A DNA stretch of 64,000 nucleotides, from contig NW_024704749.1 in NCBI RefSeq assembly GCF_018977255.1, forward strand, positions 12,772,001 to 12,836,000, written 5' to 3'. Shown here piece after piece: positions 35,433-49,800 of the stretch. Numbering within the stretch: position 1 is the stretch's first letter; each line of letters begins with the position of its first letter. Origin of the DNA: Callorhinchus milii. Taxonomy: Eukaryota. Below the pieces are notes generated by a model, which was given only the letters and a program-made list of their open reading frames with translations, was not told the origin of the DNA and searched no databases. The position numbers and the translations under genes are program-made.

Positions 35433-38400
35433 TCAGTAACCTGCAGGTTGGCCCCCCTTGCGAGGGTCTGACTGCGCTGTCCACACATCTCCGCTCTGCA
35501 CGATGGCCTGGACTACCGCCAGGGTGTCGGGGGTCATCTCGACACAATGGTTCCTCTCCCTCAGCCCGGCTGTCACCGCCTGTCACACACACACCCCGTC
35601 ACCGTCTGTCACACACACACCCCGTCACCGCCTGTCACACACACGCTGTCACCGCCTGTCACACACACTCCGTCACTGCCTGTCATACACCACACACTGT
35701 CTCACACACCGCATCACCGCCTGTCACACATACACTCTCACCGCCTGTCACACACACACCTGTCACACACACACCGTCTCACACACACACACACGGACCT
35801 CTTGGATGTCATTTTCAACCAATGTCACATTGGGTAAGAGTTGATTGTGGAATCGCGGTTCGTTCACAGCTCTCCTCACGTCATAACCAAACCATAGCAC
35901 GTTCATGATCACCTGGAAACACACGTTTTGCTTAAGAGTCTCCAAACCAAGCTGCAATTTCCACGTATCCCACCTACGCATGGAAATCCCAGAGATAGAT
36001 TGTTTAAATGGAATGTTCTCTCTCTCTTTGGAGGGATACATCCCACTTACCTACTTCCGGAAAGTATTAGGCGCAGGTTGGCAAGAGCCAAGGCTTGGGG
36101 AGCCCCAGAGTGTGCGTTGGGGTAACTGCTGGAGTTTAATCAGCTAAAACCACATAGATTGTCATTGAGAGAGAGAGAGAAAACGAGAACGCTGTCTGGT
36201 ACAAATGTCACCTTGGAGCCAGTTCGGTGCCAAGGAGATTCTGGTTCATACACAATCACGATCAAACACACACAGTCACACAACAACAACAACTTTACTT
36301 ATATTGCATCCTCACGCAGGGTAGCATCTCAAAGAGCTTAACAATGTCAGAGCCTGACTCCGAGCTGGGGGATGGGGGAGGTGGCCGTAAGCACGGTCGA
36401 AGAGGAAAGTTTTCAGGCAGGACTTGAAAGAGAAGAGAGAGGGGTCAAGGCAGAGGGATTGAGGGAGCGTGTTCCAGAGTTTTGGGGCATAGTGGCTGAA
36501 AGCACAATCTCCGATGGTGGGGCGGAGGGTGTGAGGGATGGGTAGGAGCCGGCGCCAATCAAGCGGAGGTGCCGGGTGGTGGATTGGGGGGTGAGGGGGT
36601 CGGAGAGTTAGGGAAGTGCCAGAGAGTGAATGGATTTAAATACGAGTGAGGATCTTCACAGTTGATCCGTTCAGTGATAGGGAGCCAGTGGGGCCTGGCC
36701 AGAACTGGTGACACACACAGTCATACACACACACACACACACACAGTCACACACAAGACACACACACAGACATGAGGACAGCCTGACCAGAGCGGTTGCT
36801 GTGGGGATCTTGGTTCCTCCTGAAGCTCCCACCACCATCTTCACCCTTTGCTGTTTGTCCAATATAATGGCTGGGCACATAGAGGACAGGGGCCTTTTCC
36901 CTGATAAAGAGACACTTTGCAGTGTTAATACATGGGGTTGGAGTTTGGGGCTTGGAGTTGAGGGCTGGAGTTGGGACGGGGTTGGGGCCGGGGTTGGAGG
37001 CTGGGGTTGGGGGCCAGGGTTGGAGATTGGGGCCGGGGTTCGGGGTTGCGGTCGGGGTTGGGGGCTGGGGCCCGGGGTTGGGGATTGGGGGCCGGGGATT
37101 GGGGGCCTGGGTTGGGGGCTGGGGTTCGGGGCTGGGGTTCGGGGCTGGGGTTCGGGGTTGCGGTCGGGGTTGGGGGCCGGTGATGGTGATATACAGACCT
37201 GGGCGGATGAAGTTGGCTTCGCTCGGGGGGACCCCGAAGCCGTTGATGCTGAAAGGGGAGGAGAAGTCATCCATCTCGTCATTAAACAGGATCCCGTTCG
37301 TCGTTGACCTCACGTTTGAGCCAAAGCTGTGAACAGAGAGAACACCAGGGTCTGTGGCCAGAGGGAGTGAGACAAAGACAGAGACANNNNNNNNNNNNNN
37401 NNNNNNNNNNNNNNNNNNNNNNNNNNNNNNNNNNNNNNNNNNNNNNNNNNNNNNNNNNNNNNNNNNNNNNNNNNNNNNNNNNNNNNNNNNNNNNNNNNNN
37501 NNNNNNNNNNNNNNNNNNNNNNNNNNNNNNNNNNNNNNNNNNNNNNNNNNACACAATCACACACAGTCACAAACACACACAGTCACGTACACAGTCACAC
37601 ACACACACAGTCACACACACACAGTCACACACACACACAGTCACACACACACACAGTCACACACAGGGTAAAGGTAAAGGTCTCACTATTGGTTAATGGT
37701 GCTGGTGGCTGACACTGCGCCTCCGTCCTGTGCCACCACCGAGAGGTGAGAGGTGCCGTGACTGTCCGGTGTGTAGAATTCTGGCTCATAGTAACTCACT
37801 GGGTGTGTGGTGTTGTCCGTGATTTTATCCCAAAGCTGAGATGCAAAATATTCTGAGGTCATATTGGAGATGAGCTGTTAGAGCAAAACAGTGTCAAAAT
37901 AGTGGGAAACAGGGTGAGAATTGATATTAAAGGGGCGGCATTTAAAGGGCCAGCACACCTCGGTGATGTTAACGTATCGTGGGTCTCCCATCATACTCCT
38001 CTTTGCAAAGGCAAATTTAAAGGCTTCGACGATGCGATGGGATGTCAGGGCCCTCTTGGCCGCTGTGGAAACACTTTCCGGAGAGAAATGATAACCTAGG
38101 AACAGGGAGAGAAGTTTGCATTGGGGTGAAATTAGAAACAGCCACTGGGAGCTGCTGACACTGACCGGCTTCGCTCGGATGGGAACAAAGTGGGAAAACC
38201 ATCACAACTACACAATCAATAACAACTCGAGCTTGTCTGTTCTGTCACATGATCCAGTCGGCCGATGTTAGGAGGTTGTTGTCTCGCTGCCCTGAGTTGA
38301 GATCAAGGCTTGTGCTTCCCTTTACCTCGGCACAGCAGAGGGAAGAGGGACAGGCTGTCAGAGTGAACGCCAGGAAATGTTTTGTTATCCAGGAGTAATT

Positions 38401-46800: not shown

Positions 46801-49800
46801 ACGACTTGGGGGTAGGAGAAGTCGTCCATCTGATCGTTGAAGATGATGCCATTTCTCACAGATCTCACGTTCGACCCAAAACTGTGGATTAAACCCTCGC
46901 GCAAACGCACGGGTACGTGAGCAACAGTCGTGAGAAACAGTCATGAGAAACAGACGTGAGCAACAGACGTGAGCAGTGCAGGAGGAATAGATATAGTATT
47001 GACTGGGTGTTGCTCCACATTAAGCCACCGCTCGGGGTACAAGCCCAAACCCACCCCCATTCTGTGCTCAGTCTGGCCTGGCACAATTGCTGTGAGGTTT
47101 ATTGAAGGAGAAACCAGAAGCCAGATGTGATTTCTGCCTCTGATCAGTAGTCAATCCCTCCTCCCACACCCCACCCCCGAGAAGTGCCTGTGTGTGAAAG
47201 CCAGCATCAGGCTCAGCTGTGGCCCCCCCACTCCCCACCGTGCTCACAGCACCACATCCCAAACCCACGTCACTGCCTTCAGCAATGACAGGGCAGAGCC
47301 TGGAGCCACAACACACGCACACAGACACACACTCACACATACATACACACAAACAGACAGGCACACAGTCACATACACAGTCACACACATACAGTCACAT
47401 ACACTGTCACACACAGTCACACACATACACAGTCTCACACACACACAGTCACACACAGGGTAAAGGTAAAGGTCTCACTATTGGTTAATGGTGCTGGTGG
47501 CTGACACTGCGCCTCCGTCCTGTGCCACCACCGAGAGGTGAGAGGTGCCGTGACTGTCCGGTGTGTAGAATTCTGGCTCATAGTAACTCACTGGGTGTGT
47601 GGTGTTGTCCGTGATTTTATCCCAAAGCTGAGATGCAAAATATTCTGAGGTCATATTGGAGATGAGCTGTTAGAGCAAAACAGTGTCAAAATAGTGGGAA
47701 ACAGGGTGAGAATTGATATTAAAGGGGCGGCATTTAAAGGGCCAGCACACCTCGGTGATGTTAACGTATCGTGGGTCTCCCATCATACTCCTCTTTGCAA
47801 AGGCAAATTTAAAGGCTTCGACGATGCGATGGGATGTCAGGGCCCTCTTGGCCGCTGTGGAAACACTTTCCGGAGAGAAATGATAACCTAGGAACAGGGA
47901 GAGAAGTTTGCATTGGGGTGAAATTAGAAACAGCCACTGGGAGCTGCTGACACTGACCGGCTTCGCTCGGATGGGAACAAAGTGGGAAAACCATCACAAC
48001 TACACAATCAATAACATCTCGAGCTTGTCTGTTCTGTCACATGATCCAGTCGGCCGATGTTAGGAGGTTGTTGTCTCGCTGCCCTGAGTTGAGATCAAGG
48101 CTTGTGCTTCCCTTTACCTCGGCACAGCAGAGGGAAGAGGGACAGGCTGTCAGAGTGAACGCCAGGAAATGTTTTGTTATCCAGGAGTAATTAACAGCTG
48201 GAAATAGGTTATCAGGGAGGTGGATTGGGCTGATAAATCACTGCAAAAATCTACAATCCACCAAGAGACTCCTGACCATTAAACAAAACAGGTTGGACTG
48301 TTGGACTCCAATAATAGACGGCAATGATATGCGGTGGTTGAGAATGTCTGTTATGGTTTGTTACGCTGTGTAAATAGACAGACATGAGCTCACCCTTCAG
48401 GATGTTGAGGGTGAGGCCGAGCACAGGTCCCCCAGATGGAGCGTTGGGGGTGACCAGTGTGTAGTCACCCAGTGGGAAGCTGAGCAAATCCTCTGACAGC
48501 TCAGCCTTGTAGTCTGCCAGGTCTTTGAGGGTTATGATTCCACCTGGAACAGACAGAGATACCCATATCATTCCGTTACCAGGGGAATCCCCCATCACTC
48601 CCTGTTACCAGGGGAATCCCCCATCACTCCCTGTGTTAAACACTGAGCGGCTGTCACCCACCTGCCTTCCTGATATCGGTCACTATCTGCTGTGACAGGG
48701 ATCCGGTGTAGAAGGCATCAGGCCCTTCTTCGGCCAGAATCTGATAGGTTTCAGCTAATTTGGGGAATCTGATGATGTCATTTTCCTGGAGTATTTTCCC
48801 GTTGGAATTGCAAAACACCTCACTGTGGGGAGAACACGAGACAAACAGACAGACAGAAGGTTTGACTATTCTACCACCAGAGGTTTGGTTACAGTTTTTC
48901 TTCTGTGCTCCTGAGGCTGTCATTGACTTTCCGTTGTGGCTAATTGTCTGACCTCAGTCACTCTCTGACCTCAGTCACTCTCTGTCCTCAGTCACTGTCT
49001 GTCCTCAGTCACTCTCTGCACTTGTCCAGCTGCAGCCATTGAATGTGGTTCAGAGATAACGAAGAATCTTTCCACAGCAATTAGCGCAGCTCAGGATTGA
49101 ACAGTGACCCTACCAGAACAGCCAGTACAGTGCTCAGCCATCACCATTCACACACTCCAGCATTGATGGTTTCTTCTCAACGTATTCAAATACACCCTCA
49201 AGGGAACACAGTTCTCTCCCTAGAGGAAGGGCATCTCCATGAGTCGAGGATTCTTTCTCTGTCTGTGTGAGTGTCAGTGCTTTGGGACATCCTCCCGATG
49301 TAAAAGGCACCATATAAATGCAATCTGTTGTTCTTGTTGTGTGTGTGTCTCTTCCCACTTCTCTGACACTCTCTGTCTCTCTCTGTGCGCGAGGCTCTGC
49401 TACAGCTTTCCATGTCGTCATAAAGCTGCCGTGAGGGAATGAATCAGCCGCTGCCTTACCACAGCGCTGGGTCCCTCTCGATGTCTTGCTGATATTGCTT
49501 TATGGCTTTGCCAAGCGCTGCACTAACAGGGAATCCGTCTCTGGCCAGTTTGATGCTCGGCTCAAACAGCAATTTCCACGGTAACCGGCCATGTCTCTTG
49601 TGGGCGAGTTGGTATCCTCGTATTTCCCCGGGAACCGCGATGGACAGACCTCCTGTGGGGCAGCCACACTGTGTCATTACCCCCCCCCCACACAGTGTCA
49701 TTGCCCCCCCCCTACCCCCACCCCCACACAGTGTCATTACCACCAACCCCCCCACACACAGTGTCATTACCACCAACCCCCCCACACACAGTGTCATTAC

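Follow-up and report, generated by a model that had tools for sequence, protein, structure and literature searches.

Identity confined to some exons of a tandem GGT1 pair in Callorhinchus milii: probable interlocus gene conversion beside a distinct lid exon

Gene conversion between neighbouring duplicates is a well-known process (PMC2720389, PMC3213168, PMC3728101). In the mammalian pairs BMP8A/B, DDX19A/B and TUBG1/2, two nearby copies have some exons and at least one intron homogenised and the rest diverged, and conversion was inferred (PMC2720389). The primate L/M opsin genes are tandem copies that have been homogenised and in which the part that sets the function has stayed distinct (PMC3213168), and the copepod enzyme duplicates GOT1p1/p2 show islands of high divergence amid converted sequence (PMC3728101). 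In Callorhinchus milii itself, little conversion has been reported in the protocadherin cluster (PMC2764143). The present work concerns a 64-kb window of the Callorhinchus milii genome (the whole stretch of DNA that was analysed, contig NW_024704749.1) with three genes of the GGT family, two of which are GGT1 copies, A and B, in tandem on the minus strand. It is probable that interlocus gene conversion has rewritten this old duplicate pair in patches; exon 9 of B, as predicted from its residues, would alter substrate handling. The GGT1 case is a new and clean example of the process; no literature on this locus was found by titles and the start of abstracts, subscription journals and supplements aside, and a supplement could still list the duplicates. 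The two copies and the tracts they share are the following:

35433..41902, minus strand: GGT1 copy A, 572 amino acids, open frame, GT-AG introns, 12 coding exons, canonical E420 and F433 (human numbering)
41902-41736, 41159-41029, 40585-40496, 40270-40078, 39030-38870, 38751-38602, minus strand: exons 1-6 of copy A
38095-37959, 37874-37687, 37326-37199, 36900-36788, 35912-35799, 35579-35433, minus strand: exons 7-12 of copy A
43862..50976, minus strand: GGT1 copy B, 572 amino acids, open frame, GT-AG introns, 12 coding exons, Q420 and S433
50976-50804, 50340-50213, 50072-49983, 49652-49460, 48822-48662, 48543-48394, minus strand: exons 1-6 of copy B
47887-47751, 47666-47479, 46881-46754, 46193-46081, 46001-45888, 44005-43862, minus strand: exons 7-12 of copy B
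37640..39045, no strand: shared tract 1 in A, with the start of intron 8, exons 8-5, introns 7, 6 and 5 and the last 15 bases of intron 4
47432..48837, no strand: shared tract 1 in B, offset 9792 from A
40048..40432, no strand: shared tract 2 in A, with the first 30 bases of intron 4, exon 4 and then the intron-3 minisatellite, where the likeness fades
49430..49827, no strand: shared tract 2 in B

The exon phases of A and B match. Tract 1 aligns without gaps and with 7 differences in 1406 columns, so that the shared middle is about 99.6% identical; the sequence-only reading had started the B side at 47430, with the same offset, and counted about 6 differences, and its tract is confirmed. The differing A positions are 37643, 38225, 38452, 38473, 38609, 38619 and 38743, and one of the seven sites lies in the CA-rich array of intron 8. 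Exon 4 and its flanks, described earlier as almost identical, have zero substitutions in the core of tract 2 (40048-40304 versus 49430-49686), next to which a C run is 3 bases longer in B; the overall identity of this tract is 91% over 402 columns. Over both tracts the distance between A and B is 7/1656, i.e. 0.42%.

Outside the tracts the picture is different. The number of synonymous substitutions per synonymous site (dS) between A and B is 1.24, 1.41 and 1.44 in exons 1-3 (near saturation), 0, 0, 0.02, 0 and 0.02 in exons 4-8, and 1.78 in exon 9, and it takes intermediate values of 0.28, 0.57 and 0.93 in exons 10-12. The divergence first noticed in exons 1-3, 9 and 12 is thus borne out, exons 10 and 11 (90% and 82% nucleotide identity), which had gone unmentioned, are intermediate, and divergence over the exons is far from uniform. 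The ratio of replacement to silent divergence (dN/dS) is below 1 in every exon and 0.15-0.35 in exons 1-3, 9 and 12. When silent differences are counted at codons with the same residue and the same first two bases, exons 4-8 differ at 2 of 270, exons 10-12 at 24 of 91 and exons 1-3 plus 9 at 45 of 92, the last two groups being distinct (p 0.002). The longest silent-identical run extends over 164 codons, versus at most 75 in 20,000 permutations. Introns 5 and 7 are identical between the copies, intron 6 differs at 3 of 506 positions, and intron 4 has in common only its first 30 and last 15 bases. The claim that the remaining introns do not align holds for introns 1, 2, 9, 10 and 11, with scores at or near those of shuffled controls (intron 1, 34 versus a shuffle maximum of 30), and for most of intron 4; it does not hold for parts of introns 3 and 8, where simple-repeat arrays align over 160-175 bases at the end of intron 3 and over 140 at the start of intron 8. 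Identity in introns and at silent sites rules out purifying selection alone as its cause. Between the two tracts, each copy has its own sequence:

39046..40047, no strand: A-specific core of intron 4, with no match to intron 4 of B and with broken reading frames, presumably LINE-like
48838..49429, no strand: B-specific core of intron 4, containing a piece of a high-copy repeat, with a depth peak at 49118-49461

The sequence-only reading had proposed an old duplication under patchy gene conversion, and this proposal fits every test run. Misaligned copies 9.4-9.8 kb apart would very probably exchange sequence wherever homology survives; the tracts pass through the short introns 5-7 and end where the introns have diverged, at 15 and 30 bases from the ends of intron 4 and within the repeat arrays that introns 3 and 8 contain. 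Conversion probably happened more than once, because the two tracts are separate and the divergence falls into three age layers, with exons 4-8 differing by about 0.4%, exons 10-12 having dS of 0.3-0.9 and exons 1-3 plus 9 dS of 1.2-1.8. The content of G and C at third codon positions (GC3) is 0.59 in exons 4-8 and, in exons 1-3 plus 9, 0.75 in A and 0.61 in B; there is no rise of GC in the shared tracts, which would have been no more than a supporting sign, and no direction of conversion is indicated by this test. Conversion via cDNA was rejected, since introns 5-7 are shared, and so was a single continuous tract later split by an insertion into intron 4, since each copy has its own intron-4 core. 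Exon 11 (45888-46001 versus 35799-35912) has an internal break, with 6 differing sites in the first 81 bases and 15 in the last 33, which is like the edge of an older tract.

Exon 9, which lies outside the shared block, encodes the lid loop of the active site. The GGT1 names, the exon numbering, the catalytic Thr shared through exon 8 and the distinct lid in exon 9 had all been read correctly from the letters.

46754..46881, minus strand: exon 9 of B, rebuilt lid loop, aligned to the human light chain 4gg2_B
37199..37326, minus strand: exon 9 of A, canonical lid loop

Compared with the human enzyme, exon 9 of B replaces Glu-420 by Gln (codon 46832-46830), Ser-426 by Tyr and Phe-433 by Ser (codon 46793-46791). 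The last of these is the aromatic gate of the lid: it is Phe in A, and the loop of B is of full length but has Ser in that column. Both copies keep T381, T399, N401, Y403, D422, D423, S451, S452, G473 and G474, the two glycines being the oxyanion columns, as well as R107, H81, S82 and K562, and the N-terminal Thr nucleophile of the small subunit is T384 in A and T385 in B. The residues that bind glutamate in human GGT1 are R107, N401, E420, D423, S451 and S452 (PMC7949050); A has 6 of the 6 and B has 5, with Gln at 420. In the human enzyme Glu-420 forms a salt bridge to the amino group of the substrate (PMC7949050), and the E. coli GGT (2dbu) has Gln in this column, as B does (PMC8062742). The lid aromatic gates the GGT site, its loss cut the activity of the H. 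pylori enzyme, and lid loops influence substrate size and transpeptidation (PMC8062742). When exon-9 changes are polarised by the outgroup majority, 9 of 10 fall on B (p 0.02), those of the other exons being split 13 to 13, and the exon-9 branch is 1.45 long for B versus 0.24 for A. As predicted from its residues, B is most likely an active enzyme in which donor binding is altered and the site is more open. There is about an even chance that conversion of exon 9 would be selected against, B being active and self-cleaving and E420Q together with the open lid shifting donor binding and the balance between hydrolysis and transpeptidation. In the third GGT-family gene of the window, which we take from synteny and likeness to be GGT5-like, Gln likewise occupies the Glu-420 column and the lid region is short (31932-32030, plus strand). 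Human GGT5 is reported to keep Glu in that column (PMC7949050). Derivation of exon 9 of B from this neighbouring gene was rejected by eye.

Other cartilaginous fishes were compared through 34 chondrichthyan protein rows from 21 species, isoforms dropped, with 10 bony vertebrates; rows with less than 60% cover were left out of the trees (5 of 44 for exons 4-8 and 8 of 44 for exons 1-3). Three pairs, Cetorhinus P0102/P0121, Stegostoma P0008/P0009 and S. torazame P0107/P0217, proved to be isoforms and not paralogs, and each counts as one row. There is no other chimaera among the protein matches listed (the best 85, 120 and 120). Two or three GGT1 copies on records of equal length were found in 11 of the 21 species, and from the equal record length and the accession numbers we infer a tandem position for them. 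Gln-420 occurs in 8 of the 34 rows, namely B, two of catshark, two of horn shark, two of Hemitrygon and one of Hypanus (the sole copy found there), and 5 of the 11 multi-copy species have both E and Q types. Outside the group, 192 proteins (mostly of birds, and taken as top matches) gave 190 motif sites of 192 with Glu, one with Gln and one with Leu, two proteins having no motif. Of 8 same-species pairs, 3 are more alike in exons 6-8 than in exons 3-5 (S. canicula, p 2e-8; S. torazame, 0.005; the basking shark Cetorhinus, 5e-5), versus 0 of 8 ortholog pairs; exon 9 exceeds exons 6-8 in divergence in 5 of the 8 paralog pairs (p up to 0.05) and in 0 of 8 ortholog pairs.

The trees differ from one part of the gene to another. 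In exons 4-8 A and B form a sister pair, as they do, on a long stem, in exons 10-12 (100/99); the free tree of exons 1-3 parts them (93/93, not starred) and the free tree of exon 9 likewise lacks A plus B. The Q copies of horn shark and catshark group together in exon 9 (99/98, starred; 42 columns, bootstrap not settled), a group that exons 4-8 reject in the approximately unbiased (AU) test (p 0.003); this pattern, with exon 9 but not exons 4-8 going by paralog, is seen in one direction only. The stingray Q copies, in exon 9, group with the E copy of their own species (95/99). B has a long branch in exon 9, and two placements of it give AU p of 0.18 and 0.31; the AU tests were uninformative for 4 of 5 groups. 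Against a single exon-9 lineage, B has only the E/Q column in common with the shark Q copies, and a count of that column is circular because it served to label the copies. Without it, exon-9 quartets, chosen after the alignment had been inspected, lean towards the paralogs in horn shark/catshark (2/0 versus 0/28) and stingray/catshark (2/2 versus 1/81), and show no such lean in stingray/horn shark (0/3). On the whole, the case for one lineage of exon 9 in both sharks and rays is weakened. That a second GGT1 with Gln-420 and an open lid predates the split of chimaeras from sharks and rays (about 400 million years), with conversion rewriting the rest in each lineage and selection keeping exon 9 as a swappable specificity module, seems doubtful to us. 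Convergence would be easy, since Gln in the 420 column is also found in the GGT5-like gene and in a Danio protein. The latter, P0221 of Danio aesculapii, is a 985-residue model with one domain that has Gln-420 and a shortened lid loop; it probably consists of two fused tandem genes, and teleost GGT1-like tandem copies may repeat the pattern.

A less likely explanation is that one or two chance, recent and neutral conversion or double-crossover events produced the mosaic, the borders reflecting prior divergence of the introns and exon 9 of B having drifted without any new role. All tract ends do lie at breaks in intron homology, and dN/dS below 1 in all exons is as expected under it; however, two tracts with different spacing and the intermediate layer of exons 10-12 do not suit so few events. 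B looks weakly expressed beside A, with contig depths of 13-23 versus 403 (in one run, and depth is not an expression measure), yet it is intact, with the low dN/dS given above for exons 1-3, 9 and 12 despite saturated silent sites. The change from E to Q takes a single base and recurs in the GGT5-like gene and the Danio protein; against this, the same change in the same column is found in four other species, in additional copies that stand beside an E copy, and Glu stands at 190 of 192 sites outside the chondrichthyans.

An assembly artefact, with exons 4-8 of one copy filled with the other copy or polished towards it, is very improbable. It draws support from the gaps of the window, six in number, one of which adjoins tract 1:

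37387..37550, no strand: assembly gap of 164 N in intron 8 of A, adjoining tract 1 and bridged by two spliced contigs (X5 record 17 and X7 record 22)

A second near-identical duplicate of the window likewise lies against a gap, and no read or contig compared spans tract 1 with both flanks. Four of the 24 listed sequencing runs were compared, as assembled contigs only, with the B region 45850-51000: X1 and X2 are samples from the same 2025 study, whereas X5 and X7 come from two other studies and are presumed to be RNA, a guess that their intron-skipping joints fit (none of the listed runs is recorded as RNA). In X1 the tract-1 contig has a depth of 19.0 versus 5.1-8.4 (mean 7.1) in six B-only contigs, a ratio of 2.7, and in X2 two tract contigs have depths of 13.7 and 12.1 versus 5.0-8.1 (mean 6.0) in five B-only contigs, ratios of 2.3 and 2.0; contig depth is a rough sign and no copy number. 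Moreover, one X2 contig stops at 48837 and the next starts at 48808, overlapping by 30 bases, and X1 has the same start; such a fork is expected where two real copies part. A contig of X2 (record 14) crosses the B edge at 49430 and reaches 149 bases into B-only sequence, and one of X1 (record 6) has exon 4 with the shorter C run of A and continues unlike B at both ends. The two spliced contigs join exons 4-5-6-7-8, then 124 letters unlike B (exon 9 of A has 128), then exon 10 with the letters of A, so the A message carries the shared exons. The NCBI models on a 24.7 Mb record likewise include both proteins, which differ from each other at the same two residues of exon 6. The artefact is thus largely refuted, no collapse or misjoin is seen in the independent runs, and the mosaic is real.

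The depth of X1 over 47461-48604, 2.7 times the single-copy mean, exceeds what two copies would give; this may be noise or reflect a third copy in the sample. In X5, a contig of depth 13.4 on exon 1 of B, with equal depth at exon 3, and one of depth 23.4 with the letter of B in exon 11 suggest that copy B is transcribed; the lack of contig cover on exons 9 and 10 of B in X5 and X7 is uninformative, because contigs drop minor paths and the B path would be a bubble of the same length beside that of A.

A recent duplication of the whole gene, after which the outer exons diverged very fast, is hardly credible: the long exon-9 branch of B would suit it, but silent sites near saturation and mostly unaligned introns, beside tracts at 0.4%, cannot be caused by selection on the protein.

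Under piecewise conversion, the tracts bear on how recent the last homogenisation was. B-only contigs differ from the window at 4 of 2732 positions in X1 and 2 of 2293 in X2, and the A/B distance over the tracts is only 3-5 times this. In exon 6 the A contigs of X5 and X7 have a single other letter (48411) and carry the letter of B at 48401 and 48535, i.e. at two of the seven tract sites, so those two differences are not fixed. The age of the last homogenisation is therefore comparable, in order of magnitude, to that of alleles, which speaks of recency and not of continuing exchange. A variant, 49599 T>C, is present in X2 and X7, unphased.

Several points weigh against the conversion reading or its functional part. 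GC3 is high in exons 1, 2 and 9 of A (0.79-0.84 versus 0.62-0.66), which may inflate dS there. The skew of exon-9 changes towards B is borderline when set against the other exons (p 0.054), and the exon-9 dN/dS of 0.18 gives no excess of replacements. No variant is shown to segregate in both copies, the contigs being unphased and merging the copies. The shark data are predicted proteins and may carry errors of assembly or modelling; 6 of the 11 multi-copy species have only E copies, and 5 of the 8 shark or ray pairs lack the contrast between exons 3-5 and 6-8. AU tests do not reject the three horn shark copies as an exon-9 clade (p 0.30), nor A and B as sisters in exons 1-3 (p 0.25) or in exon 9 (p 0.18).

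The assignment of both copies is straightforward. Copy A is identical to NCBI model P0086 and copy B to P0087 from exon 2 onward, both lying on the 24.7 Mb record; exon 8 gives a 100% match to Callorhinchus milii proteins. Full-length matches to Pfam PF01019 were obtained for A (E 1.5e-180, 602 bits) and B (E 2.9e-173, 578 bits), the best solved relatives are human GGT1 chains, and the top proteins, among the matches listed, bear the name glutathione hydrolase 1. Both keep H81 and Y403, absent from human GGT5 (PMC7949050), and are of GGT1 type, the trees having no GGT5 outgroup. Exon 1 of each has a hydrophobic stretch, by which the protein would be anchored in the membrane. A PacBio assembly of the species exists (PMC12952989), and the NCBI models for A and B presumably derive from it. 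Some public models are faulty: P0001 is a fragment of A ending at exon 8 beside the gap, P0002-P0004 have the start of exon 7 swapped for intron-6 sequence, and P0087 and P0004 lack exon 1 of B.

25843..34372, plus strand: third GGT-family gene (the GGT5-like one), tail to tail with A, with tblastn pieces at 33-67% and PF01019 on two exons

An element of 215-230 bases is present in three copies, upstream of this gene (24701-24918), in intron 10 of A (35929-36160, 93% alike) and, inverted, in intron 11 of B (45571-45801, 82%). In addition, an inverted, near-identical non-coding duplicate (11088-12001 versus 27220-26293; 99.8% over 454 bases and 97.3% over 331, the part with a dispersed repeat) has its second copy in intron 1 of the GGT5-like gene, split by a gap at 26624-26766; it is a young duplication, a conversion or an assembly error. 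A multi-exon gene at 200-10190 (minus strand) reads like what we take to be SMPD4. Pfam found an LSM-domain exon at 61.1-61.3 kb. We assume the neighbours to be SNRPD3, LRRC75B and GUCD1, matching the human GGT1 neighbourhood; LRRC75B and GUCD1 were not confirmed by Pfam, which gave 0 families on 3 of 4 neighbour pieces and LSM on one.

The locus offers a clean vertebrate example of exon-wise gene conversion, checked against independent runs, and it implies that whole-protein trees of shark GGT1 copies misdate duplications. A and B come close to a natural experiment in which the core is common and the lid exon exchanged, and the locus points to an unstudied enzyme variant bearing on the roles of Glu-420 and the lid loop in a vertebrate GGT1. 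The recurring copy with Gln-420 and an altered lid is the part most worth following; should its exon-9 type prove to be ancient, it would have lasted several times as long as the known mammalian cases.

With regard to those cases, the BMP8A/B, DDX19A/B and TUBG1/2 pairs were tracked by DNA as the same two paralogs through many species (PMC2720389), unlike the GGT1 of cartilaginous fishes, whose copy number varies, with one to three found. In the opsins the introns were homogenised around protected exons and the functional difference was measured (PMC3213168), whereas in the GGT1 pair whole exon blocks are shared, most introns have diverged and the functional difference is a predicted one. For GOT1p1/p2, population data show the transfer of variants (PMC3728101), and none is shown for the GGT1 pair. 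As regards the enzyme itself, both copies keep what is described for human GGT1 (4gg2, 4gdx; PMC7949050) and E. coli GGT (2dbu; PMC8062742), i.e. the Thr nucleophile, the oxyanion glycines, R107, N401, D423 and S451/S452, together with the residues of the cysteinylglycine site, H81, S82, Y403 and K562, as in known GGT (PMC7949050). B combines the Gln of the E. coli enzyme at 420 with a lid that lacks the aromatic residue of both human (Phe) and E. coli (Tyr) GGT.

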